Positions 16,070 through 45,682 of a stretch of 64,000 bases of DNA are shown piece after piece. The DNA is from Escherichia phage Lindwurm. The notes under the pieces are model-generated. The model was not told the origin of the DNA, ran no database searches, and was given only the letters and a program-made list of their open reading frames with translations. The first letter of the stretch is position 1, and each line of letters opens with the position of its first letter. A program made the position numbers and the translations under genes. Location of the stretch: the sequence record NC_134264.1; one strand, given 5' to 3'.

Positions 16070-16582
16070 TTACACCTTAAATTGTTGCAAGGATTTACAC
16101 ATTTCAAGATTTGGGCTAAATTCTAGCATATAGCTAACAGCTTTTAAATCTTGAAGATTTATCCCAGTCCTACCGTTGACTATAACCGTTGGATACTGAT
16201 ACATCATAGCACCCGCATCATCAAGCACACACCAATGTTTGAGCTTATGCTTTTCAACGAAGCGAAGAACAGAATTACCCCTAGATAATCCACCCCCAGT
16301 AAAATCCGTTGTACCAAGAAAACGATCGATAAGACCTAATCCGGTCATAATCTGAATGTTCTCCATCTCATTTCTGACAGAGAACCAAGATGATACTCCA
16401 ACAATCATTATTGGAGAAGGACGAATAAAGTCCTGAAAAGCCTTGAGAAGCGGTTTGAAAACCCAATCACTTCCAAAGAAAATCTTTTCATCATCAGGCG
16501 CATGATATTGGGAGATGCTCGAATTGAGCACCCCATCAATGTCTAGAAAAATAATTGGAGTATTACTTATTTCCTGACACAT
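16070..16582 (-). CDS. HAD-like hydrolase/phosphatase
   Basis: N-terminal IFLDIDGVLN (HAD motif I DxDG). Confidence 0.5.
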   Translation of the reverse strand: MCQEISNTPIIFLDIDGVLNSSISQYHAPDDEKIFFGSDWVFKPLLKAFQDFIRPSPIMIVGVSSWFSVRNEMENIQIMTGLGLIDRFLGTTDFTGGGLSRGNSVLRFVEKHKLKHWCVLDDAGAMMYQYPTVIVNGRTGINLQDLKAVSYMLEFSPNLEMCKSLQQFKV

Positions 16583-17378
16583 AAGGTCTACCCTCTAAAT
16601 GAGCTTCTACACGAGCAATAAAATCAGGATCACTGAAAGCATCTACCGCACCTTTACTCCAGTAAGGGATACCGCGTTCTTCCAGCTGGTACATCTCACT
16701 ACGAGTCATACCTTGATAGCTCGGTTCCGCCGCTAGGGCACTATCATAGTAGTTAACAACCATTAGCTTGGCAGCAGTCAAATTAAGAACAGGAAATAAT
16801 TCCCAGTAGAAGTTAATTACTTGGTTAGAGCAACCAACCACAACGATCATATCTTGACTGGTAATACCATCAAAAACATTGTACATTTCTGCGTACGCTG
16901 GAGCATGCTCCCCAAAAAAGATTACATTAGGTTTAACCCATTTATAATCGTCTGGATCAATAGAATTGTACCCTACATCAATAATCCGTTTATTGCTACT
17001 ATTGTAGCTATCAGCTACAACAACCTCTTTTAAATATCCGTGAATGTGCAGAATGTCACTATGTGGAACGCCAGCACGCTCAATAAGGTCATCAACGTTG
17101 GTAGTCAAGTTTACTACTTGGCCTGGATATTGTTTATACCATTCACCAATACGCAAATGCGCAAGATTGGGTTCAACAGTTTTTAGCTCTTCACGACGCT
17201 TGTTGTAAAACATATGGGTTTTATGATAAAAATTACCACGAAAGGCATGAATATTACATACCTCTTCTAGATCATAATCATCCCACAATGCTTTACCGCT
17301 AGCAGTATCAGTACGAAAAGCTCGTACACCACTTTCAACACTCAAACCTGCACCACTAATAATAATTAATCTACGCAT
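16563..17378 (-). CDS. Sir2-family (sirtuin-like) NAD-dependent protein
   Basis: GAGLSVESGVRAFR Rossmann/NAD motif, TTNVDDL, HIHG. Confidence 0.65.
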   Translation of the reverse strand: MRRLIIISGAGLSVESGVRAFRTDTASGKALWDDYDLEEVCNIHAFRGNFYHKTHMFYNKRREELKTVEPNLAHLRIGEWYKQYPGQVVNLTTNVDDLIERAGVPHSDILHIHGYLKEVVVADSYNSSNKRIIDVGYNSIDPDDYKWVKPNVIFFGEHAPAYAEMYNVFDGITSQDMIVVVGCSNQVINFYWELFPVLNLTAAKLMVVNYYDSALAAEPSYQGMTRSEMYQLEERGIPYWSKGAVDAFSDPDFIARVEAHLEGRPYVSGNK

Positions 17379-26687: not shown

Positions 26688-27020
26688 TTGCAGGGTGATA
26701 AAGAAACTATTACTAAGGAACAGGTATTATTAATACTAGACTCTATCACTTCTAAATTCAGGACTTTAGAAGACTACTACTCTGTAGGCAATGGAGATGA
26801 GAAGGTAGAGTTATGTCTAAATCTCCTAGAAGATATGGGTTGGGATGAGGAAGATCAAGTAGGATATTTAGGTATATCTACAGAAATTCTAGAAAATACA
26901 GAGCATGAAAATATACTTGAAGTAAAGAGCAGAAGTGCTATTCGGTATAATACTTATGGTACAGGTATTACAGGAATAAAAGCATTACTTAGTATAGATA
27001 TAGGATGGTTAGATGAATAA
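26688..27020 (+). CDS. hypothetical protein; start unresolved (possible frameshift from the 26636 ATG)
   Basis: track ORF starts at TTG; a 20-codon ORF with good RBS at 26636 ends in TGA at 26696-26698 in the -1 frame. Confidence 0.4.
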   Translation: MQGDKETITKEQVLLILDSITSKFRTLEDYYSVGNGDEKVELCLNLLEDMGWDEEDQVGYLGISTEILENTEHENILEVKSRSAIRYNTYGTGITGIKALLSIDIGWLDE

Positions 27021-27561
27021 AAAGTTACCTAGCCAAGAAAGATTAAAAGAATTATTAATCTATGATCCAGATACCGGTATATTTACTAATAAGGTAAGTC
27101 GTGGTAGGGGAGGAAAAGCAGGTTCACCCGCTGGATACCTAAGAAAAGATGGCTATATAACTATTAAGATAGATAAAATAGATTATTTAGCACATAGACT
27201 AGCCTTTCTATACATGACAGGATCAATACCAGATTTAATAGACCACAAAAATAGGATTAGGTCAGATAATAGGTGGATAAACCTAAGAGAAGCTACAAGC
27301 CAGTCTAATAATAGAAACTGTACCGCATCGAGTAAATCTGGATATCTAGGTGTACACTGGAACAAACAATTACAGAAATGGCAAGTACAGGTGATTGATA
27401 ATAAAGGTAAAAATATTTATGGGGGTGTTTTTGACTACTTAGACCTAGAAAGTGCGGTCATAAAGGCTAATGAACTGAGAAAAACACTTCATGGTAGCGA
27501 AGCAGTTATAGAAGATTTCTATACTAACTATTACCCACCAGTAGAGGAACTTAATAAGTGA
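27013..27561 (+). CDS. HNH homing endonuclease
   Basis: IDHKNRIRSDNRWINLREATSQSNNRN. Confidence 0.75.
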   Translation: MNKKLPSQERLKELLIYDPDTGIFTNKVSRGRGGKAGSPAGYLRKDGYITIKIDKIDYLAHRLAFLYMTGSIPDLIDHKNRIRSDNRWINLREATSQSNNRNCTASSKSGYLGVHWNKQLQKWQVQVIDNKGKNIYGGVFDYLDLESAVIKANELRKTLHGSEAVIEDFYTNYYPPVEELNK

Positions 27562-28034
27562 GCGTTTTCCACATTTACACAGATGGTGCTTGTAAGTCTA
27601 ACCCAGGTCCAGGTGCTTGGGGTTTTATTGTCTATGATGATAACGACGATCGTTTAGGTTCTAAATCTGGTTATAATCCTAAAACTACAAATAATGAGAT
27701 GGAACTCACAGCTATTGTAGAAGCTCTACGTTGGTCTGTTAAAAAAGATAATAGACCAATTGCTATCTATACTGACTCTGCTTATTGCAAAAACGGCATG
27801 GAAAGTTGGATGTTTTCTTGGCAAAGGAAAGGCTGGAAGAAAGCAGATGGTGAAGTTCCTCTTAATCTAGAACTTTGGCAGGAAGCATTTAAATTAACAC
27901 AGCAGTATATCAACTTTCATAATACTAATCCTACCTTTATTAAGGTTAAAGGACATTCTGGTATTAGTGGTAATGAAGCTGTAGATGCATTGTGTAATAC
28001 TGTTATTACTGAGCAAGAACTTGCCGAGATGTGA
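27558..28034 (+). CDS. rnhA: ribonuclease H
   Basis: IYTDGACKSNPGPGAWG ... ELTAI ... YTDSAY RNase H1 motifs. Confidence 0.85.
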   Translation: MSVFHIYTDGACKSNPGPGAWGFIVYDDNDDRLGSKSGYNPKTTNNEMELTAIVEALRWSVKKDNRPIAIYTDSAYCKNGMESWMFSWQRKGWKKADGEVPLNLELWQEAFKLTQQYINFHNTNPTFIKVKGHSGISGNEAVDALCNTVITEQELAEM

Positions 28035-28110
28035 TAAATAAATTAAAAATTTTCTTGCTTAAAGCCCTCTAATTTAGTATAATATTCGTATTGAAAGTGA
28101 GGAGGGCTTT

Positions 28111-28395
28111 ATGCGGATTTATAACTCAAATTCATTAGGATTTAAACCATTGAGAAAACGTGCACAATCACCTCGTCAAATAAGAAAGGCTAATATTGGT
28201 GAGCCAGAGACACGACTTCCACCTCCTCCAGAACAACGTTTAGTTTATCTGGACGAAGAATTAGCGGAACGCGAAAGAAAAGCTCAAGAAGAGATTGAGC
28301 GTAAGAAAATGTGTACTGCTCCAGCCTACTCCAAAGGGGCTTATCAGTATATCTATACAGCCGAGGAGGCTAAAGATGCGGGGCGTAAAAAATGA
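28111..28395 (+). CDS. hypothetical protein
   Basis: 94-aa ORF. Confidence 0.5.
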   Translation: MRIYNSNSLGFKPLRKRAQSPRQIRKANIGEPETRLPPPPEQRLVYLDEELAERERKAQEEIERKKMCTAPAYSKGAYQYIYTAEEAKDAGRKK

Positions 28396-28841
28396 AGATT
28401 ACCGAATTTAAAGGTACTTATAGTTTCTTATCTAACTTTTATTTATCACCAATCACTTTCGAATACCTAAACGAGATATGGCATGCTGATACTGTAGAAC
28501 ATGCTTTTCAGGCTATGAAATCCGACCAAAAAGATGATGTAGCTCATGTACTGCGCTCCCTAAATGCAGGAGTTGCCAAACGTAGAGGACGTAAATTAAC
28601 TCTACGCTCTGACTGGGATAAGGTAAAAGATGATGTAATGCTAGAGCTTTTACGGTTAAAGTTTGCAATACCTGATTTGAGAGACAAACTGTTAGCAACA
28701 AAAAATGCAACTTTGATCGAAGGAAATACCTGGGGAGATACATATTGGGGTGTTTGTCGAGGCATCGGGGATAATACTCTAGGTGTTCTTTTGATGCAGG
28801 TAAGGTCTGAAATTAAAAGAAGCTTACAGTTAATAAATTAA
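28392..28841 (+). CDS. NADAR (YbiA-like) domain protein
   Basis: YSFLSNFYLSPITFE...WHADTVEHAFQAMK...TWGDTYWG typical of NADAR/DUF1768. Confidence 0.65.
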   Translation: MKITEFKGTYSFLSNFYLSPITFEYLNEIWHADTVEHAFQAMKSDQKDDVAHVLRSLNAGVAKRRGRKLTLRSDWDKVKDDVMLELLRLKFAIPDLRDKLLATKNATLIEGNTWGDTYWGVCRGIGDNTLGVLLMQVRSEIKRSLQLIN

Positions 28842-28849
28842 AAATTCAT

Positions 28850-28878
28850 TTGCTAAACGCTTCAAATTCTCGTATAAT
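28850..28878 (+). promoter_or_regulatory. early-type promoter
   Basis: TTGCTA-17-TATAAT then CATAAATTGATAAACAAAAAGGAAAA. Confidence 0.6.
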
Positions 28879-28916
28879 ATACTTCATAAATTGATAAACA
28901 AAAAGGAAAACAAATA

Positions 28917-29432
28917 ATGGCTAAGCAGAAAAACGCAAAAACTCAAGCAGCTCCGGCAGTTAAAACTTTCCCGCAGACCGAGGCTAATCGCAAAGCTCGC
29001 CTGGAACGTCACCTGCGTAAGCATCCTACCGATACCCAGGCTGCGCAAGCACTGAATAATCCGGCTCCGATTCGTAAGAAGCCTAAAGCTAAAAATGCCG
29101 CCCGTAAATCCTACAAAATGGTTATGTATGTAGAAAATTACGGACACAAATCTGTCCCAGTTTCCCTGAGCTTCAACGCTGGGGCTGAATTGTTCTCTCG
29201 TAATGGTATGTCTATGAAAGACTATGAGAAGGCAGTTAACCAGAAGCGTAAACCAACAGCAGATGTATTGCGTGATACTCGTGGACAGTTTGGTTCTGTT
29301 AAGCCAAATATCCTTGGCGTAGAGTATAGTAAAGATAATGTTCGTGCTCTGTGTTACGGTGTAGGCATTAAATTCACTGGTGATTCTGCTCGTAAATCTG
29401 CTAAACCAGCTCGCAAGCGTAAAGCGAAGTAA
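28917..29432 (+). CDS. hypothetical basic protein
   Basis: 171 aa, Lys/Arg-rich ends. Confidence 0.55.
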   Translation: MAKQKNAKTQAAPAVKTFPQTEANRKARLERHLRKHPTDTQAAQALNNPAPIRKKPKAKNAARKSYKMVMYVENYGHKSVPVSLSFNAGAELFSRNGMSMKDYEKAVNQKRKPTADVLRDTRGQFGSVKPNILGVEYSKDNVRALCYGVGIKFTGDSARKSAKPARKRKAK

Positions 29433-31010: not shown

Positions 31011-31649
31011 ATGACTACTCGTATCTCTAAAACTCGCGCTCTGGCAACTATCAAATCTCTGGAAGCTAAAATCCGTAAAGCTACTGAACAGCAGCTTCTG
31101 ATTGCTGTTGGTGAAGGTAAGGATAAAAACCAGGTTGTAGTTGGCGCTGCAATCGAAGTAGCTGATCTGTCTACCCGTATTAAGACTGATTTCCAATCTC
31201 TACTGGATATGATGTCTCAGCGTGATCGTATCAAATCTGCTCTGATTAAGAGCAATGCAGAAACAATCGTTAAGATTGGTTCTCGTAAAATGACTGTTGC
31301 GGAAGCAATTGAAGCTAAGCGTTCTATGGAGCTTAAAGCTCAACTGCTGGCTAACATGCGTAAGCAGTTCCATGCCGCTACGGTTAAATTTAATACGCAG
31401 AAAGCACAGTTTGATGCTAAATATGAGCGTTTACAGGATAGCATGGCTACCCGCGATAAGAAAACTTCCGAAGATGAAGTTAAAATGCAGCTCAACCTGC
31501 TGGAACTCAAGAATACTCCATTCTTGATTGATCCGCTGGAACTGGAGAAGCTGATTAAGCAGCATGACGAGGAATACCAGGACTTTGCAACAAATGTTGA
31601 CTTTGTTCTGTCCGAGTCTAACGCTTCTACCTTCATTGAAGTAGAGTAA
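31011..31649 (+). CDS. hypothetical protein
   Basis: 212 aa. Confidence 0.55.
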   Translation: MTTRISKTRALATIKSLEAKIRKATEQQLLIAVGEGKDKNQVVVGAAIEVADLSTRIKTDFQSLLDMMSQRDRIKSALIKSNAETIVKIGSRKMTVAEAIEAKRSMELKAQLLANMRKQFHAATVKFNTQKAQFDAKYERLQDSMATRDKKTSEDEVKMQLNLLELKNTPFLIDPLELEKLIKQHDEEYQDFATNVDFVLSESNASTFIEVE

Positions 31650-32091: not shown

Positions 32092-32409
32092 ATGACTTTT
32101 CATATTTTGATTGATGATGTGCGTAATCTTCATGGAATGGACATTATCATTCGAACCCCAGAAGCCGCTGTAGAGTTTCTGAATAAAACTGATACCACAG
32201 GCCATTTCGTTTATATGGATAATGACTTGGCTGTAGATGGTATGGAAGGTTATCAAATTCTTCGTTTACTCTTAGAATTTGGGCAGAGACCAAAGAAAGT
32301 GGTACTAGTAACCTCGAACCCAGTAGCTAAGCAAAATATGCGTAATGATTTGCTTGACTTAGGGTATAAAGAAAATCCCAATCGTGTTGAATATGATTGG
32401 CAGGAGTAA
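32092..32409 (+). CDS. hypothetical protein
   Basis: 105 aa. Confidence 0.5.
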   Translation: MTFHILIDDVRNLHGMDIIIRTPEAAVEFLNKTDTTGHFVYMDNDLAVDGMEGYQILRLLLEFGQRPKKVVLVTSNPVAKQNMRNDLLDLGYKENPNRVEYDWQE

Positions 32410-34491: not shown

Positions 34492-34566
34492 CGGGGTGTA
34501 GTCTAAGGGAGAGGCAGGAGTCTTCTAAATTCCTTTATGCAGGTTCGAATCCTGTCACCTCGGCCA
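34492..34566 (+). tRNA. tRNA-Arg (anticodon UCU)
   Basis: acceptor CGGGGTG/CACCTCG, D-stem GTCT/AGGC, anticodon loop CTTCTAA, T-arm GCAGG-TTCGAAT-CCTGT, encoded CCA. Confidence 0.7.
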
Positions 34567-34600
34567 ATTTTATTAACTGTAACTAAAACAAAGGAAACAT

Positions 34601-35548
34601 ATGTTTAATACTAAAAATATGAAAGAACTGACTTCTGAGCAGAAAGTAATTCGTACTATTAAACGTTGGGGTATTGGTGCTGTAGTTGGTTTAGCAGGCT
34701 TGATTCTAGCTTTTAATTCGTATACCATTGTTTCTGATGGTACGGTTAAAACCCAGACTTTCCTGGGTAAAGTAGACCCTAATCCAGTATTACCTGGTTT
34801 CCATCTTGTAAACCCGTTTGCATCTTTCGATACTTTTAGTACAAAAGATATTGCTGTAAAATTAGATAAACTTCAGGTTCCTAGTCAGGATAAGTTTAAA
34901 TCCACTGTTGACCTGACTGTTATGTTGCAGTTTGATGGTTCTAAGGCACCGATTAACCGTATTAACGCAGGTACTCAGGATCAGGCACTAGACAAGTATG
35001 TAACTGAAAAATTACTGTCTACTATTCGTGAGTTTGGTAAGTCTGTACCTAAAGCACAAGATTTGTTTGATGCTAAAATTCAGGCTCAATTGCAAACTGC
35101 AATTCAACAAGAAGTTGAAGAGTATGCACGCCCATATGGTTATACAGTTAAGCAGGTATTCCTTCAGGATATTACTTTGCCACCGGTAATCATGGAACAG
35201 GTACAGAATACCAAAGTTCGTGAAGAGCAAGTTAATGCTGCGAAAGCTGAACTGGCTCGTGTTGAACAAGAAGCACAGCAGAAGGTTAAACAAGCAGAAG
35301 CAGATCGTGAAGCTCGCAACAACCAAGCTATTGCTAATGAACGTGACGCAGATGCTAAACTGTACGCAGCTAAGAAAGAAGCTGAAGCTAACGCCGCATT
35401 GCAACGTACCATTACTCCTGAGATGATTCGTTGGAAACAACTGGAAGTTGAGATGATTCGTGCTCAGAAATATCAAGGTGGTGTACCTCAGACTGTGGTA
35501 GGTACTGGCTACGATGGTCAAATGATCATGGATATGCGTAACAAATAA
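34601..35548 (+). CDS. SPFH/band-7 (prohibitin-like) membrane protein
   Basis: N-terminal TM GIGAVVGLAGLILAF; SPFH-like core; Ala/Gln/Glu-rich coiled-coil C-terminus. Confidence 0.6.
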   Translation: MFNTKNMKELTSEQKVIRTIKRWGIGAVVGLAGLILAFNSYTIVSDGTVKTQTFLGKVDPNPVLPGFHLVNPFASFDTFSTKDIAVKLDKLQVPSQDKFKSTVDLTVMLQFDGSKAPINRINAGTQDQALDKYVTEKLLSTIREFGKSVPKAQDLFDAKIQAQLQTAIQQEVEEYARPYGYTVKQVFLQDITLPPVIMEQVQNTKVREEQVNAAKAELARVEQEAQQKVKQAEADREARNNQAIANERDADAKLYAAKKEAEANAALQRTITPEMIRWKQLEVEMIRAQKYQGGVPQTVVGTGYDGQMIMDMRNK

Positions 35549-35571
35549 TAGTTACACGTAATCTTCGAACC

Positions 35572-35610
35572 AAGCCCGCGTTTCCTCCGAGAGCGCAGGC
35601 TTTTCTGTAT
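35572..35610 (+). terminator. hairpin terminator
   Basis: AAGCCCGCG...GCGCAGGCTT stem followed by TTTTCTGTATTT. Confidence 0.5.
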
Positions 35611-35620
35611 TTAAGGCAAA

Positions 35621-35660
35621 ATAAAAAGCCCCTAAGTCTTTCGACTAGGGGCTTTATTGT
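35621..35660. terminator. bidirectional terminator between convergent genes
   Basis: AGCCCCTA...TAGGGGCT stem flanked by A-run upstream and T-run downstream. Confidence 0.6.
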
Positions 35661-35872
35661 TTGGTTCCTTAGAACCATATACTCTTGTTACAGCAACCAC
35701 CCATACGGGAGGCCAATCTTGACTGAAAATCTACTCTAGGGGGCAGGATAAGAGTAGGCTTAAAGGCAAACGGATTGAACGCCGGTATTTGCGTAAACAT
35801 TGCTGGAGAGCAACAACGTGCTACAGGCATTGGGCAGCACGAAACAGGTTTTCTGCAACACATAATTTCTCC

Positions 35873-36289
35873 TTAGGAGTTATTACCACCATTTTGAGCT
35901 TTTGCAATTTGGCTTTGGCAGAAGCTATTAAACTTACCCATAAGTGATACAAGCTGTTTCCCATCCTCTGTCTTTGCGAAGTCTTCGAAAAGGGCTAGTA
36001 CTGCCTGTCCTTCCGCGGAAACCTGTGGTTGTTGGGTTTGTTGCTGAACTTGCTGCTGAGGCACCTGTTGCTGCATTTGTTGGGGCATTTGCGACTGCCC
36101 GCTCATTTGCTGCATCATTTGCATAGGACTCACACTTCCAGGGTTTTGCTGGAGTTGTTGCTGCATCTGTTGCGCTTCTGCTAAACGCTGTTGCAATTGT
36201 TGTAAGTAGGGGTTATCCAGACCCGGAATGGGCTGCTGGGAGCCCATACTTTGATTAAGTCCGTTATTTACAAAACCATATTTACTCAT
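35873..36289 (-). CDS. Gln-rich hypothetical protein
   Basis: 138 aa; low-complexity Q/P-rich core. Confidence 0.5.
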   Translation of the reverse strand: MSKYGFVNNGLNQSMGSQQPIPGLDNPYLQQLQQRLAEAQQMQQQLQQNPGSVSPMQMMQQMSGQSQMPQQMQQQVPQQQVQQQTQQPQVSAEGQAVLALFEDFAKTEDGKQLVSLMGKFNSFCQSQIAKAQNGGNNS

Positions 36290-36310
36290 AATGGGCTCCT
36301 CCCCTTAATA

Positions 36311-37297
36311 TTAAGCCGGCAGTTTAGCCTGCAGACCAGCCAGAGTCTGAGTGATAGTACCAAGACTTAAAGCGATTTGATTAATTACCTGACCGTTAGC
36401 ACCGCTACCCGCAGCGATTGCTTCACGTAGGCGACACGCATCTAACTCATCCTGGATACGCGCAGTAGTTACACCGGCGATCGCAGTCTGAAGTTCACAG
36501 CAACATTCAGCAATCTGACGTTCCAGAGAGTTCTGGTTAGCACACATCTGAGCCTGAACAGCGGCAAACTGGTTATTAGTTTGTAAAGTCTGCTGGAAAG
36601 CGATCTGTGCAGAATCAAACTTATCTTGTGCACGAGCTATCTGATTAGCTGCGAAAGATTGATCAATCTGGCGAGAAAGATCGAACTGGCCCTGAATAAC
36701 GTTGCGAGTTTCCTGGCAGATCTGATTAGACAGATTAGCACCTGTACCATAGATCGTAGTTAGTACAGACTGAGTATCACGGCTCTGGTTTTGGGATGTC
36801 TGGCTAAAACCATTGTTAACTGCGCTTAAAACAGCTCCAGTGCCCTGGTTAGCTTCTGTACGAGTAGTGTTAATAGCTGCTAGAATACTAGCGGTATCTT
36901 GGTTCTGAAGTACTGCATCAACTGCGGTACCTTCACCAACTACACCACGCCCACCGAATCCACCGAAACCACCGAATCCGCCTGTTAATAGAGCACCGAT
37001 TAGGATAGCTCCGAATAGTCCCATACCTTCACCACCGAAAGCACCTGCGTTTGCTGGGTAACCACCCAGTAGGCCAGGAAAGCCACTAGTGAATACGTTT
37101 ACTGGTTCTTGCATTTTATGTTTTCCATATTTATGACAATGTTCATCATCGTCATCTTCTTCATCGTCGTGTTCGCGATGTTTCTCTTCGTAGGCTCTGA
37201 CCTTCTCCCACTTTTTCTTATCTGATTCCTCGTGACGGTGCAGTTCTGCTGCAACGCTAGCGACGGTCTCAGGACTCTTAGCTACTTCTTCTGTCAT
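36311..37297 (-). CDS. glycine-zipper membrane-like protein with acidic N-terminus and Q/N/A-rich C-terminus
   Basis: AGGAGG RBS 9 nt before ATG at 37297; GGFGGFGGFGG repeats; CCC cluster. Confidence 0.5.
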   Translation of the reverse strand: MTEEVAKSPETVASVAAELHRHEESDKKKWEKVRAYEEKHREHDDEEDDDDEHCHKYGKHKMQEPVNVFTSGFPGLLGGYPANAGAFGGEGMGLFGAILIGALLTGGFGGFGGFGGRGVVGEGTAVDAVLQNQDTASILAAINTTRTEANQGTGAVLSAVNNGFSQTSQNQSRDTQSVLTTIYGTGANLSNQICQETRNVIQGQFDLSRQIDQSFAANQIARAQDKFDSAQIAFQQTLQTNNQFAAVQAQMCANQNSLERQIAECCCELQTAIAGVTTARIQDELDACRLREAIAAGSGANGQVINQIALSLGTITQTLAGLQAKLPA

Positions 37298-37503
37298 TTT
37301 TTGACACCTCCTAGTATATAGAAAATGTGTGTCTCTTTGATCACTCATCCATAACATATACTTTACACTACCCCAGCGAAAATGTCAAGGGGTCTTTAAA
37401 AATTGCCCCCGGATTTTTAGTGGGGTCACAAATTTTGGTCCTCACTACTTATCTGCTACCCTTAAATGCCCTATGATTTTCCTCTAAAAAGTTAAAAAAT
37501 TTA

Positions 37504-37532
37504 ATTGCTTGAATGCTATATTCTCTGTATAA
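37504..37532 (+). promoter_or_regulatory. early-type promoter
   Basis: TTGCTT-17-TATAAT then CTATAAATTTGAGAGAGG. Confidence 0.6.
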
Positions 37533-37562
37533 TATATCTATAAATTTGAGAGAGGAACCAAA

Positions 37563-38082
37563 TATGAATGTTGATGAGCTAACACAGCACCTCTTATCTA
37601 GAGGATTTGATACAGATAAATATCATTGCTGGTTAAGTACGGAAGGATGGCTAACAGTCCCGTTGTATGACTTCTCTGGGATGTTGAGGGGCTATCAAAC
37701 TTATAATCCTTCTGCTCCAAAAGGTCATGGTAAGTGCCCCTTTGAAGCTAAATACTTTACTTATTCTACTACCCAGTGTGTATGGGGACTAGAAACTCTC
37801 AATGGAGATGAAAAAGTAGTATTGATTGCTGAATCTGTATTTAAGGCAGTTGCGTTACATAACGCTGGTTATCCAGCCCTAGCAATGTTGGGTTCTTCTC
37901 CAGGAAAAGCGTTATTAAAGCAACTGAAATTACTACCTTTTAAATTGATAGCTGTCGGGGACAATGATCCTGCGGGTGAAAAATTTGCTAGAAAATTAAA
38001 CGGCTTTGTTTCTCCTGTAGATGTAGATGAGATGTCTACCGAAAACTTGAAAAATTTTCTTGCTATGAAGCTAAATTTCTAA
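37563..38082 (+). CDS. Toprim-domain protein
   Basis: VVLIAESVFKA ... KLIAVGDNDPAGEKFARKL (conserved Glu plus DxD); ATG 37563. Confidence 0.55.
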
Positions 38083-38088
38083 TATAAT
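38060..38088 (+). promoter_or_regulatory. early-type promoter embedded in 3' end of preceding CDS
   Basis: TTGCTA-17-TATAAT immediately upstream of tRNA-Ser. Confidence 0.5.
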
Positions 38089-38103
38089 ATATCTTATAAA
38101 TTC

Positions 38104-38192
38104 GGAAGAATAGCATAACGGTATTGCAGCAGATTGCTAATCTGTCGGTTTGAAATATAGCCTTGTGGGTTCGATTCCCACTTCTTCCGCCA
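38104..38192 (+). tRNA. tRNA-Ser (anticodon GCU), class II
   Basis: acceptor GGAAGAA/TTCTTCC, anticodon loop TTGCTAA, long variable arm, T-arm GTGGG-TTCGATT-CCCAC, CCA. Confidence 0.75.
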
Positions 38193-38198
38193 GATTTT

Positions 38199-38276
38199 GG
38201 TTCTCAAGCTCATATGGTATGAGCACCCAGCTCATAACTGGAAGGTACGTAGGTTCGAATCCTCGGGGAGCCACCA
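38199..38276 (+). tRNA. tRNA with CAU anticodon (Met/fMet/Ile2)
   Basis: acceptor GGTTCTC/GGGAGCC with G-U pairs, D-arm GCTC-ATATGGTAT-GAGC, anticodon loop CTCATAA; T-stem poorly paired. Confidence 0.55.
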
Positions 38277-38294
38277 ATTAAATAGAGGTCACAA

Positions 38295-38483
38295 ATGGAT
38301 CTATATATAGTTTATGTTGTGTTTATTCAAGATAGAGAATACCCGGATGAATATAAAAAAGGATATAGGTTAGCCAGAGCTACCTCTGAAGCCCAAGCTA
38401 TGGATAAAGTGGCAGATTATATGATTACGGTAGAAAACGTACACTATATCGACTACCTTGAAGCCTCAAAAGTAATTGACTAA
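38295..38483 (+). CDS. hypothetical protein
   Basis: 62 aa. Confidence 0.45.
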   Translation: MDLYIVYVVFIQDREYPDEYKKGYRLARATSEAQAMDKVADYMITVENVHYIDYLEASKVID

Positions 38484-38492
38484 GGAGACTAT

Positions 38493-38678
38493 ATGTCCAA
38501 GTTTCAAGAACTCAAGCAAGAGCTAGAAGAGTGTGCCTGCCCTGAGTGTAGGGGAATTGGTGAAAGTTCTGATGCAGAAGCAGGAGATACTTTTTGCAAT
38601 ATCTGGGTTTGCCCAAATTGCAATGGTACAGGTATTAATCCTAACTGTGGTATTTCCCTAGATATTGAACGAGGATAA
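38493..38678 (+). CDS. hypothetical Cys-rich zinc-ribbon protein
   Basis: CACPECRG...CNIWVCPNCNGTG. Confidence 0.5.
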   Translation: MSKFQELKQELEECACPECRGIGESSDAEAGDTFCNIWVCPNCNGTGINPNCGISLDIERG

Positions 38679-38779
38679 TACCTGTGAAACTAAAAGATTA
38701 CTATATTGGTTGGTTTGTGGGACTAGTAGTAGGATTTTCACTAGGCTATAATATGTATCAACTAATAAACTGATTACAT

Positions 38780-38856
38780 GGGGGTGTAATCGAATTGGCA
38801 TAGGTACTGGACTTAAAATTCAGGTTTTGTGGGTTCGAATCCCACCACCCCTACCA
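38780..38856 (+). tRNA. class I tRNA with UAA anticodon (Leu-decoding by anticodon)
   Basis: acceptor GGGGGTG/CACCCCT, D-stem ATC/GGT, anticodon stem CTGGA/TTCAG loop CTTAAAA, 5-nt variable loop, T-arm GTGGG-TTCGAAT-CCCAC, A73, CCA. Confidence 0.6.
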
Positions 38857-39031
38857 AATTAAGGAAATAAGATGTATAGACATCCACCTCCGCCAACACG
38901 TCGTTCTAGAGAAGTTATTCTCATGGAGTTGACTAAAAACTTCAAGGCAACTCTTGAAGATAGAGATCTAGGCACGGATGAAGACATTGATTTTATTTGT
39001 AGACTATTAAAGATGAAACTGGAGAAACAAC

Positions 39032-39238
39032 ATGGCTAATCCTGAAATTACCGCACAACGTTTCATGCTTAAAGGTATGATTGCTGAGGCGGGTTTAACT
39101 CAAGAGGTTGCAGATTTTCATAAGCAATTTCTTGATATTATAACTCTAGCTAAAGAAACTGGAGAAAAAGAACATGGAGCGGCAATTATGGCTATATCTC
39201 TTATTAGTCTAGACTTGGCTGAAGAATCTGGAGTTTAG
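39032..39238 (+). CDS. hypothetical protein
   Basis: 68 aa. Confidence 0.45.
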   Translation: MANPEITAQRFMLKGMIAEAGLTQEVADFHKQFLDIITLAKETGEKEHGAAIMAISLISLDLAEESGV

Positions 39239-39268
39239 ATCCTCCAAACAGAATTTTTAAAAATGTAC

Positions 39269-39298
39269 TTGCCTTTTGCTTTAAATTTCTGGTATAAT
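39269..39298 (+). promoter_or_regulatory. early-type promoter
   Basis: TTGCCT-18-TATAAT. Confidence 0.5.
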
Positions 39299-39328
39299 AG
39301 TTATATAAATTGATGAAGGAGTTAACGA

Positions 39329-39604
39329 ATGCAAAATCGTGTTATAGCAGCTGGTATTGAAAGTGCAATCTGTAAATCCTGGGAAGGCTGGGAAGGTGAG
39401 ATTGAATGGCTTTATTTCTACGATGTAGAGCTTCTGCCGGAAATTAAAGCTAAATGTGTTGAAGCTGGCATGTCTCCAGATGCAAGAGCTGATATTGATA
39501 TTTCAATGTCTGAACTTAAAGGTCGTGTAATCACTGTTAGTGATGAGGGCGAAGAAGTTTTTGAACTTCCGTTCTCCTTAACTGTCACTCCTAAGTTCGA
39601 CTAA
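39329..39604 (+). CDS. hypothetical protein
   Basis: 91 aa. Confidence 0.5.
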   Translation: MQNRVIAAGIESAICKSWEGWEGEIEWLYFYDVELLPEIKAKCVEAGMSPDARADIDISMSELKGRVITVSDEGEEVFELPFSLTVTPKFD

Positions 39605-39640
39605 CTAATACAGCATTGGGCAAGTTCTTTAAAATTTGAC

Positions 39641-39669
39641 TTGCCCAATACTATAAAACTTGGTATAAT
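39641..39669 (+). promoter_or_regulatory. early-type promoter
   Basis: TTGCCC-17-TATAAT. Confidence 0.55.
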
Positions 39670-39802
39670 ATTTATCTAATTTGGAAAGTTCTTTTTAAGG
39701 TAGTTCTTACTTTAGCAGAGTAAATTTTTGGCAGATGGCCCCCACCATTTTACCGATAACTCCTAGTCAGTGCGGTAACACTGGCTACCTTAAAGAGAAT
39801 TT

Positions 39803-39890
39803 GGGCGTTTATTCCGTAAGTGGTAGCGGAGGGGACTGTAAATCCCTGGTCATTGCGACTCGAGTGGTTCGACTCCATTAACGCCCACCA
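39803..39890 (+). tRNA. tRNA-Tyr (anticodon GUA), class II
   Basis: acceptor GGGCGTT/AACGCCC, anticodon loop CTGTAAA, long variable arm, T-loop TTCGACT, CCA. Confidence 0.7.
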
Positions 39891-39897
39891 ATTTAAT

Positions 39898-39972
39898 GCA
39901 CCTATCGTCTAGCGGTTAGGACACCACTCTTTCACAGTGGGAACACGAGTTCGATCCTCGTTGGGTGTGCCA
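39898..39972 (+). tRNA. tRNA-Glu (anticodon UUC)
   Basis: acceptor GCACCTA/TGGGTGT, anticodon stem CCACT/AGTGG loop CTTTCAC, T-arm ACGAG-TTCGATC-CTCGT, CCA. Confidence 0.7.
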
Positions 39973-39981
39973 ATTAATAAT

Positions 39982-40052
39982 TGGGGTACGCATAGGTTGC
40001 AAATGGGCCTCCAAAACCCATGAAAAGGTTTCGAATACCTTTACCCCTGCCA
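39982..40052 (+). tRNA. tRNA-Trp (anticodon CCA), tentative
   Basis: T-arm AAGGT-TTCGAAT-ACCTT, acceptor 3' TACCCCT + G + CCA, anticodon loop CTCCAAA; 1-72 mismatch and weak D-stem. Confidence 0.5.
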
Positions 40053-40058
40053 AAATTT

Positions 40059-40133
40059 GCACCTTTAGCTGAGATGGATTAGCGCTTGCCTGAAGAGCTT
40101 GAGAGGTTCGTTCGATTCGAACAGGGTGCACCA
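40059..40133 (+). tRNA. tRNA-Phe (anticodon GAA)
   Basis: acceptor GCACCTT/AGGGTGC, D-arm GCTG...TAGC, anticodon loop CTGAAGA, T-arm GTTCG-TTCGATT-CGAAC, CCA; anticodon stem has two U-U mismatches. Confidence 0.6.
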
Positions 40134-40150
40134 ATTTGAGGGAGCTGCTG

Positions 40151-40423
40151 ATGCATCCTGAAAACTTCTTTATTTACTGCGCTGATAAGTCGCTGAAACG
40201 TAGAATTAACAAAGTCTATCATTATCGTGCTAGTCAACAGCCTTATGTATATGCTTTTGATGATGATCACATTCCACTAGAACAATTATCTTGTGATTAC
40301 ATGATATTGAAGAACTTTGACGAGACAAAGATCTCAAGCGTTCATAATCGACAGAATCCATTAACGTGGAAATATAAGAAGAAAAAGAAAGGCATCAAAT
40401 TTTTAAAAAATGTAGTTGCTTAG
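40151..40423 (+). CDS. hypothetical protein
   Basis: ATG 40151 with GAGGGAG RBS (track ORF begins inside tRNA-Phe). Confidence 0.45.
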   Translation: MHPENFFIYCADKSLKRRINKVYHYRASQQPYVYAFDDDHIPLEQLSCDYMILKNFDETKISSVHNRQNPLTWKYKKKKKGIKFLKNVVA

Positions 40424-40444
40424 TTTCCAAAAGTTCTGTATAAT
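40416..40444 (+). promoter_or_regulatory. early-type promoter
   Basis: TTGCTT-17-TATAAT. Confidence 0.6.
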
Positions 40445-40492
40445 AATTACATAAATTGAACTGGAGAAGCAACATGATAGAATAAGATAAAT

Positions 40493-40568
40493 CGACCGTT
40501 GGCTGAATGGCTTAGGCGAAGGATTGCAAATCCTTTTTATGTGAGTTCAAATCTCATGCGGTCGTCCA
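40493..40568 (+). tRNA. tRNA-Cys (anticodon GCA)
   Basis: acceptor CGACCGT/GCGGTCG, anticodon stem AAGGA/TCCTT loop TTGCAAA, T-arm GTGAG-TTCAAAT-CTCAT, CCA. Confidence 0.7.
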
Positions 40569-40576
40569 AATTTTTA

Positions 40577-40659
40577 GGGTCGTTAGCCAAGTGGTTTGGC
40601 GGCGGATTGTTAATCCGTGTCGAAAGACAACGTAGGTTCGAATCCTACACGGCCCGCCA
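40577..40659 (+). tRNA. tRNA-Asn (anticodon GUU) with 13-nt extra arm
   Basis: acceptor GGGTCGT/ACGGCCC, D-arm GCCA-AGTGGTT-TGGC, anticodon stem GCGGA/TCCGT loop TTGTTAA, variable region GTCGAAAGACAAC, T-arm GTAGG-TTCGAAT-CCTAC, CCA. Confidence 0.65.
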
Positions 40660-40761
40660 AATTCTGTGTAGAGTTAAGTAAACCGGTAGCCAACCAGCTA
40701 TCATTGCTGATATCGAATTCAGCCACAGATACCGTTTTCATTAATAACTGAGGAAACAAGC

Positions 40762-40947
40762 ATGTCCAAGAATGTAATTGCGCAGCTAGAAGTTCATCGT
40801 GATAGCACTATCAACAATATTGAAGTTGAGAAGAAATACATCGAAGAACTTAAACATGATATACTGGTAAGTCTCAACCGTCTTAACGTACGAAAAGAGT
40901 TTCTTAAGGAACTTAATGCAGCTATTGAAAAACTCAAAGCTGAGTAA
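40762..40947 (+). CDS. hypothetical protein
   Basis: 61 aa. Confidence 0.45.
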   Translation: MSKNVIAQLEVHRDSTINNIEVEKKYIEELKHDILVSLNRLNVRKEFLKELNAAIEKLKAE

Positions 40948-40956
40948 ATGAATTAT

Positions 40957-41033
40957 GCGACCGGGGCTGGCTTGGTAATGGTACTCCCCTGTCACGGGAG
41001 GGAATGTGGGTTCAAATCCCATCGGTCGCGCCA
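40957..41033 (+). tRNA. tRNA-Asp (anticodon GUC)
   Basis: acceptor GCGACCG/CGGTCGC, anticodon stem CTCCC/GGGAG loop CTGTCAC, T-arm GTGGG-TTCAAAT-CCCAT, CCA. Confidence 0.75.
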
Positions 41034-41059
41034 AACTAAACTAGCACGAGAAATATGCT

Positions 41060-41407
41060 ATGATTAATGCTAAAGAAGAATTGTTACTTGCCCTAAAGAA
41101 TACTAATTCTGAAGTTAAGTGTATTAAGATAGAATTCGGTTATTATGGTGACAAAGAAGTTTGGGTATTGCCCGTAGGTTATACAGAAAAAGATATTGAA
41201 GATTTTCTAAATAATCTAGACTTTAAATATGATTCTGGTTATGGTGGGCAATTGCTTTATGGTAACGTGTGGTTTACTGATGGAACTTGGTTAGAACGTG
41301 GTGAATACGACGGTTCTGAGTGGTGGGAATATAAGGCTACGCCAGCAATCCCAGAAGAATGCCGAACAATTAATGGTGAAGTAGATCGTACTTTACTATT
41401 AAATTAA
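41060..41407 (+). CDS. hypothetical protein
   Basis: 115 aa. Confidence 0.5.
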   Translation: MINAKEELLLALKNTNSEVKCIKIEFGYYGDKEVWVLPVGYTEKDIEDFLNNLDFKYDSGYGGQLLYGNVWFTDGTWLERGEYDGSEWWEYKATPAIPEECRTINGEVDRTLLLN

Positions 41408-41527
41408 CAAAATTTCAGTGCAGAACACGGAGCTAGCAATTCGGAAGTGCTGACTCATGATAAGCTGCCTATGTACTTGCGAAGCGGTCGTGTCCAAGAC
41501 TCGGACTCTTGCACTGAAAACAATCAA

Positions 41528-41650
41528 ACATTCTAGCGTGGTTGATGGGGAAACCAGCTTGGCGAGGGCAGAAGCTCGTTCGATTCGAGTGAAAGAATGG
41601 TTCTCGTAAGTCCGCACAAGTGATAACAGGTTCGAGTCCTGTCTAGAATG
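41528..41650 (+). ncRNA. tRNA-like element with large internal insertion (non-canonical)
   Basis: 7-bp acceptor ATTCTAG(41529-35)/CTAGAAT(41642-48), D-arm GGTT-GATGGGGA-AACC, two T-arm-like hairpins (GCTCG-TTCGATT-CGAGT and ACAGG-TTCGAGT-CCTGT), about 121 nt, no CCA. Confidence 0.4.
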
Positions 41651-41798
41651 ACACTATAAAGTTTACTTATTATGTAGGTTCCGGTAGACCGGCGGGTCTA
41701 TTCTGGCATTTAAGAGAGGTCTCGCAAGCCTCTTTGTCAGCAGTGGGGTTGGTAGCCTCCAGGTGGCCTACACAATAAGTAAATTTATTAAAAATTCA

Positions 41799-41827
41799 TT
41801 TGCTATTCTGCTTAATTCTCTGTATAA
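41799..41827 (+). promoter_or_regulatory. early-type promoter
   Basis: TTGCTA-17-TATAAT. Confidence 0.6.
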
Positions 41828-41860
41828 TATATCTTATAAAGTGAAGAGAAGGAAAGCTAA

Positions 41861-42058
41861 ATGAAGAAAGTTTTATTACTATCCGTATTCCTACTTACTG
41901 GTTGTTTTAAATTTGACTCAACCATTAATAAAGAGTATGAATTTGCTAAAAATTTCTGTGGCGGAGAGAGTAATATAAAGAATTTCTACATATATAGTAC
42001 GATTCCTAGTACCGTTTATTGTGTAGACGGACGAATTATTAATATTCCTCCACAATAA
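41861..42058 (+). CDS. putative small lipoprotein
   Basis: signal peptide with lipobox LLTGC. Confidence 0.5.
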   Translation: MKKVLLLSVFLLTGCFKFDSTINKEYEFAKNFCGGESNIKNFYIYSTIPSTVYCVDGRIINIPPQ

Positions 42059-42067
42059 AAGAATTAA

Positions 42068-42143
42068 CAGTGCGTAGCGCAGTTGGTAGCGTGGGAGCCT
42101 TGGATGCTTCGGGTCGCAGGTTCGAGTCCTGCCGCACTGACCA
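42068..42143 (+). tRNA. tRNA-Pro (anticodon UGG)
   Basis: acceptor CAGTGCG/CGCACTG, D-arm GCGC-AGTTGGTA-GCGT, anticodon loop CTTGGAT, T-arm GCAGG-TTCGAGT-CCTGC, CCA. Confidence 0.75.
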
Positions 42144-42149
42144 AACAAT

Positions 42150-42227
42150 TGCGGGTTAGATCTCTGGTAGAGATCACTAGTCTCATAAGCTAGAAAGAGG
42201 TAGGTTCGATTCCTGCACCCGCTTCCA
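42150..42227 (+). tRNA. tRNA with CAU anticodon (1-72 mismatch, initiator-like?)
   Basis: acceptor TGCGGGT/ACCCGCT with T1-T72 mismatch, D-arm GATC...GATC, anticodon stem CTAGT/GCTAG loop CTCATAA, T-loop TTCGATT, CCA. Confidence 0.6.
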
Positions 42228-42247
42228 TTTTAATAGAGGATTTCGAA

Positions 42248-42415
42248 ATGAAAGTATTTCGATTAGTAGTAAGTGACAAACGTTCAGGTAAGAATACATC
42301 AAAATCCTTACTTGCTCATTACGGTAAAAATTGGGATGAAGTAATGGTAGAGTTTAGTACTAATCACCCTTACTTAAAAGTCCACTCTATTAAAGAAGTG
42401 TATAATGGTTACTAA
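42248..42415 (+). CDS. hypothetical small protein (55 aa)
   Basis: ATG 42248 with AGAGGA RBS; fits exactly between two tRNAs; below 60-aa track cutoff. Confidence 0.45.
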   Translation: MKVFRLVVSDKRSGKNTSKSLLAHYGKNWDEVMVEFSTNHPYLKVHSIKEVYNGY

Positions 42416-42416
42416 T

Positions 42417-42495
42417 AGATCGCTAGCTCAATAGGTTTAGTAGCATCCGACTTTTAATCGGAAGGTTCTGGGTTCGAGTCCCAGGCGATCTACCA
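42417..42495 (+). tRNA. tRNA-Lys (anticodon UUU)
   Basis: acceptor AGATCGC/GCGATCT, anticodon stem TCCGA/TCGGA loop CTTTTAA, T-arm CTGGG-TTCGAGT-CCCAG, CCA. Confidence 0.7.
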
Positions 42496-42513
42496 ATTTC
42501 AAGAAAAATGCAG

Positions 42514-42542
42514 TTGCTTAATGCTTAATTTCTTGTTATAAT
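42514..42542 (+). promoter_or_regulatory. early-type promoter
   Basis: TTGCTT-17-TATAAT. Confidence 0.6.
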
Positions 42543-42559
42543 ATTTATATAAATTGATG

Positions 42560-42870
42560 CGAAAATAGCTGCCTAGATATCAGGTGTATGACGTCTACAC
42601 TAGCAGAGCTACCGAAAAAGAGATCCTCAGGATAAACGTCGTAGCAAAATTAGTCTGATATCCATCAATTTAGTTCACTAAGGTATTAGCTTGACCTAGG
42701 ACTGGCTGCCAAAAAGCACGATCCCTACGATTCGGGAGAAGTTCTAGATTAGTCCACTAGATTCAGCGGCAACTGAATAGTGTATCGGGTTTGCGAGATG
42801 ACGCGGTTCCTTCCGCTCGAAGCGAAGGTGCTGTAGTTACGCCGAGCTAATAGCCTTAGTAAACTAAAGA
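42560..42870 (+). ncRNA. structured non-coding region of unknown function
   Basis: about 310 nt, promoter-proximal, no credible ORF; hairpins e.g. CCTTCCGCT-CGA-AGCGAAGG at 42808-42830. Confidence 0.3.
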
Positions 42871-42874
42871 ATTT

Positions 42875-42948
42875 GGGGATATAGTTTAATGGTAGAACAT
42901 CTGCTTTGCACGCAGAAGACGAGGGTTCAACTCCCTCTTTCTCCACCA
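42875..42948 (+). tRNA. tRNA-Ala (anticodon UGC)
   Basis: acceptor GGGGATA/TTTCTCC, D-arm GTTT-AATGGTA-GAAC, anticodon stem TCTGC/GCAGA loop TTTGCAC, T-arm GAGGG-TTCAACT-CCCTC, CCA. Confidence 0.7.
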
Positions 42949-42953
42949 AATTT

Positions 42954-43038
42954 GGGGCTATGCTGGAACTGGTAGACAATACGGCCTTAGATTCCGTAGC
43001 TTAAATGCGTGGGAGTTCGAGTCTCCCTAGCCCCACCA
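42954..43038 (+). tRNA. tRNA-Leu (anticodon UAG), class II
   Basis: acceptor GGGGCTA/TAGCCCC, anticodon loop CTTAGAT, 13-nt variable arm, T-arm GGGAG-TTCGAGT-CTCCC, A73, CCA. Confidence 0.7.
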
Positions 43039-43054
43039 ACTTATAGGGTAATGT

Positions 43055-43639
43055 ATGCAGTTTGTACCAATAAAAGATGCACCAGGGTATTTAGTAAATG
43101 AAACAGGGGATGTGTTATCTACATTTACTAATAAAATTTTATCAAGATATATAGTTGATGGATACCCTGCTGTAAAATTACAGATAAATGGTAAGCAAAC
43201 TTCGGTACTTATACACCGAATTATTTCTCATGTATTTGGGGACTTATATAATCTATTTGACCCTGAATTAGAAGTAGATCACAAGGATAGAGATAGGCTG
43301 AATCTATCTAAAGATAATCTTCAAGTTTTGTCAAAAATAGAACATCAGAAGAAAACTAATAAAGATAATGGATGGTCTGATAGTAGAGTACCTTGCCCCT
43401 TATGTGGAAATCTAATGCTTCAGAGATCAGTAACATGTACAAATTGTAAGCCAAAACCTACAGGAAAGTTAATAAAACCAGAATTGTCCTTAGAAGACAT
43501 AACTGAAAAGGTTTTATTAATGGGGTGGGTTAAGGCAGCTAAAGATCTAGAAGTATCAGAGTCCACTTTACGTAGACGATATACTAAACTAACCGGATTA
43601 AGCCCAAAAGTATTAACAGAACAACGGAAAAGCAAATAG
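43055..43639 (+). CDS. HNH homing endonuclease
   Basis: EVDHKDRDRLNLSKDNLQVLSKIEHQKK HNH motif; C-terminal Cys cluster and HTH-like tail; sits inside tRNA island. Confidence 0.75.
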   Translation: MQFVPIKDAPGYLVNETGDVLSTFTNKILSRYIVDGYPAVKLQINGKQTSVLIHRIISHVFGDLYNLFDPELEVDHKDRDRLNLSKDNLQVLSKIEHQKKTNKDNGWSDSRVPCPLCGNLMLQRSVTCTNCKPKPTGKLIKPELSLEDITEKVLLMGWVKAAKDLEVSESTLRRRYTKLTGLSPKVLTEQRKSK

Positions 43640-43719
43640 ACTGGTGACTAAACCCGATTGGAAATCGGTTGAGTGGTAGCAATACCGCCTTATGGGTTCA
43701 ACTCCCATCTTTTCCGCCA
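43626..43719 (+). tRNA. tRNA-Ser (anticodon GGA), class II
   Basis: acceptor GGAAAAG/CTTTTCC, anticodon stem CCGA/TCGG loop TTGGAAA, long variable arm, T-arm ATGGG-TTCAACT-CCCAT, CCA; 5' end overlaps HNH stop by about 14 nt. Confidence 0.55.
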
Positions 43720-43731
43720 AACAATTTATAC

Positions 43732-43826
43732 GGTAGGTCAATCCAACGGCTGGCGCTGGACTCCGACTTGAAATCGGTTGATCGTAGTGATACGGTGTAA
43801 GGGTTCGATCCCCTTACCTACCTCCA
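43732..43826 (+). tRNA. tRNA-Ser (anticodon UGA), class II
   Basis: acceptor GGTAGGT/ACCTACC, anticodon stem CCGA/TCGG loop CTTGAAA, long variable arm, T-arm AAGGG-TTCGATC-CCCTT, CCA. Confidence 0.6.
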
Positions 43827-44721: not shown

Positions 44722-44730
44722 TAGCATTCT

Positions 44731-44806: not shown

Positions 44807-44812
44807 AACAAT

Positions 44813-44888: not shown

Positions 44889-44896
44889 AGTAATAA

Positions 44897-45674: not shown

Positions 45675-45682
45675 AAATTCAT

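Follow-up and report, generated by a model that had tools for sequence, protein, structure and literature searches.

The 64,000-nucleotide stretch of Escherichia phage Lindwurm analyzed here (NC_134264.1; hereafter the window) contains a gene for a protein with a NADAR domain, an ATG-to-TAA open reading frame (ORF) of 149 amino acids at positions 28,392 to 28,841 on the plus strand. The product (hereafter the window NADAR) is very probably an orphan, antitoxin-like NADAR of the AdfN^Bas32 type, which reverses guanine-linked ADP-ribosylation (guanine-ADPr) by the toxin DarT1 to counter DarTG1, and the gene is accordingly described here as an adfN-type NADAR gene for a predicted DNA guanine-ADP-ribose glycohydrolase. 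An original prediction made from the sequence had proposed counter-defense against host ADP-ribosyltransferase (ART) toxins, and such a function has been shown (PMC11825919) for the 100% identical protein of phage Bas33 and the 98.7% identical protein of phage Bas32; the target is DarT1, which makes guanine-ADPr, and not DarTG2, which makes thymidine-ADPr. Since the counter-DarTG1 function is already known for an identical or near-identical protein, the finding is correct but not new.

The window NADAR agrees in all 149 residues with bas33_0070 of the BASEL phage Bas33 (HildyBeyeler) and in 147 of 149 with bas32_0066 of the BASEL phage Bas32 (IrisVonRoten), the BASEL numbers being taken from the locus tags of the public records. 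T9A and K104E are the two differences by which the Bas32 copy departs from both Bas33 and the window, as found by comparing the public records (L003, 1841 to 2290; L004, 1838 to 2287). The NADARs of these two phages were named AdfN^Bas32 (anti-DarT factor NADAR) and described as identical by Johannesman et al. (Nat Commun 2025, PMC11825919). In that study, AdfN^Bas32 neutralized the DarT1 toxin in Escherichia coli with no need for other phage factors, and its ectopic expression brought RB69, T5, and Bas25 back to full titer on a DarTG1 host, but it was of no help to T5 on DarTG2. According to the discussion of the same paper, both non-T4 NADARs that were tested have DNA ADP-ribosylglycohydrolase activity, and in the published tree, AdfN^Bas32 is grouped with two archaeal NADARs, not with YbiA. 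T5 is sensitive to DarTG1 (PMC11825919) and has no NADAR gene at the corresponding locus, which we counted in favor of assigning the window NADAR to the AdfN^Bas32 type.

In a Pfam search, the ORF product matched PF08719 (NADAR, DUF1768) with 79 bits (E-value of 6.3e-22) over profile positions 9 to 163 of 163, against a gathering cutoff of 35.1 bits, and is thus a member of the NADAR superfamily. The original prediction had named exactly this ORF as encoding a NADAR-domain protein and a profile search as the way to check it; the observation is confirmed and lies far beyond chance. The protein also matched phrog_1017 (8.4e-45), labeled "unknown function" in PHROGs. Among relatives with solved structures, HMMER placed E. 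coli YbiA (2b3w) first (2.8e-15), followed by the NADAR from Phytophthora nicotianae (PnNADAR; 8bau; 6.8e-7). A PADLOC scan gave no DarG-type match, only a weak match to PDC-M42C, a candidate system protein (27.8 bits), and noise. Membership in NF053876, the DS32_2 family of NADAR anti-phage proteins, was rejected (45 bits against a cutoff of 240), as was membership in the TIGR02464 equivalog, riboflavin biosynthesis intermediates N-glycosidase (66.8 bits against a curated cutoff of 73.7 bits).

The TIGR02464 score, the first rank of E. coli YbiA among the solved structures, and the public record labels "swarming motility protein YbiA" and "GTP cyclohydrolase II" would all suit a YbiA-type N-glycosidase with a metabolic role, namely, the destruction of reactive intermediates of the riboflavin pathway. 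Such a role is nevertheless very improbable for the window NADAR, given that the score stays under the curated cutoff, no riboflavin genes lie nearby, and the identical protein neutralizes a DNA ADP-ribosyltransferase (PMC11825919). Moreover, the gene is dispensable, being missing from about 80% of T5-like phages, and the record labels are transferred annotation rather than evidence.

Relatives from a deep protein search were assembled into a 36-sequence clade alignment, which served as the input for an AlphaFold2 model of the window NADAR. The model (predicted local distance difference test score, 97.7; predicted template modeling score, 0.91) displayed the helices and strands expected for a YbiA-like fold, namely, an α-helical core flanked by two small β-sheets. 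Only two significant PDB matches were returned by Foldseek, 2b3w and 8bau, with template modeling (TM) scores of 0.82 and 0.75, respectively, and a probability of 1.00 each; the DarG1-type NADAR from Geobacter (8bat) was a poor match (TM score of 0.45, E-value of 1.3). HMMER alignments to 2b3w and 8bau showed that E43, K50, K75, R79, E125, D130, and W133 of PnNADAR correspond to E36, K43, K63, R67, E110, D116, and W119 of the window NADAR, respectively. Across the 36-sequence clade alignment, E36, Q40, K43, E110, W114, D116, and W119 were invariant and K63 was nearly so. The seven residues aligned with PnNADAR are therefore the predicted catalytic and ligand-binding residues of the window NADAR, their individual roles being assigned from these alignments.

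In the complex of PnNADAR with ADP-ribose, the pyrophosphate is shielded by K75 and R79, W133 and D130 contact the ligand, and the distal ribose is coordinated by E43 and E125 (Schuller et al., Mol Cell 2023, PMC11543638). The residue at the position of E125 splits the subfamilies, with Glu marking the YbiA family, Asp BC4488/DarG1, and His the T4-type phage NADARs, and DarG1 of E. coli C7 needs E88, K95, and D171 (PMC11543638). With E110 at this position, the window NADAR is a Glu-type, bare-core protein without the N-terminal extension of DarG1, and it has the Glu-type active site and the bare core in common with the YbiA family as broadly defined by de Souza and Aravind. This subfamily placement rests on the diagnostic residue, the profile scores, the fold matches, and the published tree.

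The Glu residue at the family-defining position in the last strand and the bare YbiA-like core would also suit a broad-spectrum nucleic-acid de-ADP-ribosylase, the main targets of which would be other ARTs (for example, YarT-like or pierisin/ScARP-like), cytidine-ADPr, or guanine-ADPr on RNA, with DarT1 reversal as one of several activities. This reading overlaps with an AdfN^Bas32-type function rather than excluding it, and we consider it a possible but not a probable account of the main role of the protein. In vitro, those members of the Glu-type NADAR and YbiA families that were tested took cytidine-ADPr off both DNA and RNA, an activity not shared by the DarG1-type enzymes or the T4 NADAR (PMC12945103). 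Further points in its favor are that the YbiA-type NADAR of C. crocatus is the antitoxin of YarT, an ART unrelated to DarT (PMC11125620), and that the nearest relatives outside the T5-like phages lie beside RNA-repair genes (Rnl1 and PNK-like) in one contig and beside a YAcAr/SLOG gene in another. By contrast, the functional data for this protein are confined to DarT1 and DarTG1, where rescue was complete (PMC11825919).

Reversal of DarT1 damage remains the function that we favor for the window NADAR, and several points have to be set against it. The Bas32 and Bas33 NADARs are identical according to PMC11825919, whereas their public records differ at two residues, and either variant may be the cloned one. 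In the literature examined, we found no knockout of the native gene in a T5-like phage, the published support being ectopic expression; the HIDEN-SEQ preprint (10.1101/2025.11.20.689424), which we checked for knockout or transposon data on a T5-like NADAR, covers only T4, Bas37, and Bas54. As a Glu-type protein, the window NADAR is nearest to YbiA and not to DarG1 (Asp) or T4 (His), and its natural substrates may extend beyond DarT1 damage or even lie mainly elsewhere. Finally, the window gives no sign of the defense systems carried by the hosts of this phage. We infer both that countering DarTG1 is the natural role of the gene in this particular phage and when the gene is expressed.

The window comes from a T5-like phage (Demerecviridae, Markadamsvirinae), the best megablast matches being Salmonella phage Stp1 and Shigella phage SSP1 (96.5–96.6%). 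The early gene block in which the original prediction had placed the NADAR gene is indeed the early replication and nucleotide-metabolism region. Typical T5 early genes are present in the window, with nrdAB (ribonucleotide reductase), frd (dihydrofolate reductase), thy (ThyA), and rnh (RNase H) on the plus strand and DNA polymerase among the replication genes on the minus strand. The neighbors of the NADAR gene, all on the plus strand, are the genes for an HNH endonuclease (27,013–27,561; PF13392, 51 bits), RNase H (27,558–28,034; PF00075, 112 bits), and a 94-amino acid homolog of T5.090 (28,111–28,395; phrog_4593, function unknown, no Pfam match) upstream and a DUF7022 gene (28,917–29,432) downstream. 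None of these four neighbors was an ADP-ribosyltransferase according to Pfam and PHROGs, in a scan that was not extended to the whole window, and the NADAR gene is an orphan in this sense.

A T5-type early promoter (TTGCTT-17 nt-TATAAT) is located on the plus strand at 28,055–28,083, between the RNase H gene and the T5.090 homolog. The surrounding segment (28,035–28,109) aligns to the 75-nt promoter annotated between rnh and T5.090 of T5 (NC_005859, 46,337–46,411) with a local score of 73/75, and the promoter is invariant across Bas31, Bas32, and KS_S14; it was missed by a simple consensus scan, TTGCTT sharing three of six positions with TTGACA. A homolog of the T5 early promoter P-H 207 (TTGCTA-17 nt-TATAAT; 28,850–28,878, plus strand), which drives the DUF7022 gene, was detected by a promoter scan and by alignment to T5, the segment at 28,831–28,905 aligning to the feature "promoter P-H 207" (NC_005859, 45,985–46,059). 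The orientation of the T5 record is opposite to that of the window.

The TGA codon of the T5.090 homolog and the ATG codon of the NADAR gene share the sequence ATGA, a 4-bp overlap, and the two genes are probably translated as a coupled pair. The T5.090 homolog occurs both in T5-like phages that carry NADAR and in those that lack it, indicating that it is not a NADAR-specific partner; its product combines a basic N-terminus with a PPPP motif and a helical stretch of charged residues. On the simplest reading, the T5.090 homolog and the NADAR gene form a two-gene early unit, likely starting at the promoter at 28,055–28,083, and transcription probably runs on into the DUF7022 gene. From 27,622 to 29,168, the plus strand showed no terminator-like site, so that read-through from upstream is possible. 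The original prediction had further described the NADAR gene as co-transcribed with the RNase H and HNH endonuclease genes. Both neighbors are real, but co-transcription finds no support as a functional link and is at best incidental, given that the T5 promoter follows the RNase H gene and the HNH endonuclease gene is part of a variable insertion. This insertion, between thyA and the RNase H gene, consists of an ORF of 110 amino acids (phrog_26840) followed by the HNH endonuclease gene (26,688–27,561, plus strand) and is probably a homing-endonuclease cassette with no relation to the NADAR gene. In the same interval, T5 has nothing, Bas32 has no annotated gene, Bas33 has a different ORF of 93 amino acids, and a comparable pair occurs in Bas31 and KS_S14.

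Alignments with NADAR-negative phages delimited an accessory segment at 28,350–28,841 (plus strand), composed of a remodeled 3′ end of the T5.090 homolog and the whole NADAR ORF. The distance from the start of the T5.090 homolog to the start of the T5.089 homolog is 806 bp in the window versus 362 bp in T5 and Bas31, a net gain of 444 bp. The left junction falls within the final ~14 codons of the T5.090 homolog, which ends with ...IYTAEEAKDAGRKK before the stop codon in the window versus ...VSDEEQAKMVGR in phages lacking NADAR. The right junction, set against Bas31 by direct inspection and pairwise alignment, lies just ahead of P-H 207, which marks the right-hand edge of the insert, and an A-rich microhomology, TAAAAA(A)T, is present at both junctions. 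At this locus, T5 (NC_005859) has rnh (T5.091), the promoter, T5.090 (92 amino acids), P-H 207, and T5.089 with no NADAR gene, and Bas31 (DaisyDussoix) has a T5-like arrangement, likewise with no NADAR gene, whereas KS_S14, Bas32, and Bas33 carry the gene here. About 93 of 439 matching T5-like records covered at least 80% of the region at 28,050–28,920; among the matches listed, most others covered ~31 to 44%, which amounts to no more than the flanks.

Because the NADAR gene is an accessory insert and its surroundings hold further variable genes, the HNH endonuclease gene among them, it might be a passenger that has no role for the phage and is carried along by recombination. We regard this as highly unlikely, however, because the ORF is intact, all of the catalytic residues are kept, and the gene, which follows a strong early promoter, is tightly coupled to its upstream neighbor. 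In addition, the NADAR cluster, which comprises 235 member sequences, is conserved at 97% protein identity or higher, and the protein is active when expressed (PMC11825919). A selected counter-DarTG1 function, as favored above, is also consistent with the diverged NADARs of other Markadamsvirinae. Beyond the cluster, the nearest relatives share ~60% identity. The NADAR of Salmonella phage vB_SenS_UTK0009 (60% identical; L006, 2501–2950) is encoded directly after the RNase H gene and upstream of the T5.090 homolog, and that of Bacteriophage Eos (54% identical; L005, 2986–3495) also directly after the RNase H gene. Both phages belong to Markadamsvirinae, and their NADAR site, close to that in the window but distinct from it, points to two or more independent acquisitions within this variable region, a pattern that would fit repeated selection for the AdfN function. 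More tentatively, and on balance we think this unlikely, AdfN of the T5 group, as a Glu-type, bare-core NADAR closest to YbiA, could erase a wider range of modifications than enzymes of the DarG1 and T4 types, also removing cytidine-ADPr and RNA-linked ADPr and protecting against ART defenses yet to be described; the diverged NADARs at two neighboring sites in the thyA-RNase H-DUF7022 region would then represent an anti-defense hotspot under recurrent selection.

Outside the T5-like phages, the two nearest relatives that were looked up are encoded in phage-like contigs (L009 and L010), which we counted in favor of the AdfN assignment. In L009 (6001–6826), the NADAR gene overlaps a downstream gene for a YAcAr (SLOG-like) domain protein, and the contig also carries QueC, QueD, FolE, and radical-SAM 7-deazaguanine genes together with a holin and an endolysin. 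In L010 (4561–9050), the NADAR gene overlaps a downstream gene and lies between a gene for a T4-type RNA ligase 1 (Rnl1) and a Metallophos/AAA_33 (PNK-like) pair; this contig also has Pyr_excise, and the neighborhood is RNA-repair-like. NADARs of the T5 type at 98 to 99% identity also occur in short records that bear the names of Listeria phages, Campylobacter phages, and others (such as Listeria phage LM 4-11-1, 2093 bp), which are probably mislabeled or contaminant contigs and not a sign of host-range breadth.

From these observations, the following course of events can be proposed. Early in infection, the NADAR gene would be transcribed from the T5 early promoter together with the T5.090 homolog. 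In a host with DarTG1, DarT1 would ADP-ribosylate guanine on the phage DNA and block replication; the window NADAR would then bind the ADP-ribose moiety and hydrolyze the N-glycosidic bond between ribose and guanine, restoring unmodified DNA and allowing replication to proceed. By homology to PnNADAR, K63 and R67 would be placed at the pyrophosphate, W119 and D116 at the ligand, and E36, K43, and E110 at the distal ribose. Thymidine-ADPr made by DarT2 would not be acted on. A "nucleotide-damage repair factor," which the original prediction had offered as an alternative to counter-defense, is the same chemistry, in which an ADP-ribose adduct is taken off DNA.

The practical value of these results lies in annotation because the GenBank and RefSeq labels of the NADAR gene are inconsistent and often misleading. 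In most public records of T5-like phages, the gene is labeled "hypothetical protein," "swarming motility protein YbiA," "DUF1768 domain-containing protein," "GTP cyclohydrolase II," or, rarely, "NADAR family protein." The 444-bp insert, found in approximately one in five T5-like phages, is a simple marker for phage therapy and host-range prediction, and whether a T5-like phage has it or lacks it should predict the ability of the phage to grow on Escherichia or Salmonella strains that carry DarTG1.

Several other genes in the window were noted. A Sir2-family protein (16,563–17,378, minus strand; PF02146, 87.6 bits) is encoded by a gene overlapping that for a protein with a HAD_SAK_2 domain, a "Swiss Army Knife RNA repair" HAD domain (16,070–16,582, minus strand), and a protein with a cREC_REC cyclic-phosphate-processing receiver domain is encoded at 32,092–32,409 (plus strand). 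These three genes, which have an NAD- or RNA-repair-related flavor, correspond to the T5 genes T5.102, T5.105, and T5.084. The region at 34,492–46,491 (plus strand) contains 21 tRNA genes with 18 amino-acid specificities, which is typical of T5-like phages. The homolog of T5.085 (31,011–31,649, plus strand; 212 amino acids) matches phrog_1491, labeled "tail fiber protein"; because it has no Pfam match and lies in the early region far from the structural genes, this label looks doubtful.

Compared with known NADAR systems, the window NADAR shares with AdfN^T4 (T4 gp30.3) the status of a phage orphan NADAR, and gp30.3, which takes guanine-ADPr off DNA, acts against DarTG1 though not against DarTG2 (PMC11825919). 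However, gp30.3 is a His-type protein from the clade nearest to DarG1, requires the phage context, and does not remove cytidine-ADPr, whereas the window NADAR is of the Glu type, and its Bas32 equivalent works without phage factors and was missed by BLASTP and PSI-BLAST searches from AdfN^T4 (PMC11825919). Membership in the T4 gp30.3 type was rejected, as Glu110 occupies the position at which His defines the type (PMC11125620) and AdfN^Bas32 does not cluster with AdfN^T4 (PMC11825919). The BC4488-type antitoxin DarG1 (G. lovleyi 8bat and the E. coli C7 NADAR) has the superfamily, the reversal of DarT1-made guanine-ADPr, and the antitoxin logic in common with the window NADAR, but it carries Asp (D171 in E. 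coli C7) at the diagnostic position, has an N-terminal β-β-α extension thought to bind single-stranded DNA, is ~230 amino acids in length, and is encoded beside DarT1 (PMC11543638). Membership in the DarG1/BC4488 type was likewise rejected on the basis of Glu110, the length of 149 amino acids without the extension, the low TM score to 8bat, the lack of an ART neighbor, and the lack of a DarG match in PADLOC.

E. coli YbiA is the best match of the window NADAR in both sequence and fold (36% identity in the structural alignment), with the bare core and the Glu of the last strand common to both, and YbiA-type enzymes hydrolyze guanine-ADPr in vitro (PMC11125620). It differs in being the product of a housekeeping gene in a LexA-controlled operon that does not act as an antitoxin to DarT1 in vivo (PMC11125620), and the window NADAR falls below the TIGR02464 cutoff. 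PnNADAR, solved in complex with ADP-ribose, shares the fold and all of the ligand-binding and catalytic residues at 28% identity; it is a eukaryotic protein with N-terminal and internal extensions of the core, which the phage NADAR lacks (PMC11543638). The closest system is AdfN^Bas32 itself, which is the same protein at the same locus (T5.090 homolog, NADAR, and DUF7022 gene) in the same phage subfamily. Nothing material differs beyond the carrier phage: the window shares ~97% nucleotide identity over the segment and, unlike Bas32, has the HNH endonuclease gene and the ORF of 110 amino acids between thyA and the RNase H gene.

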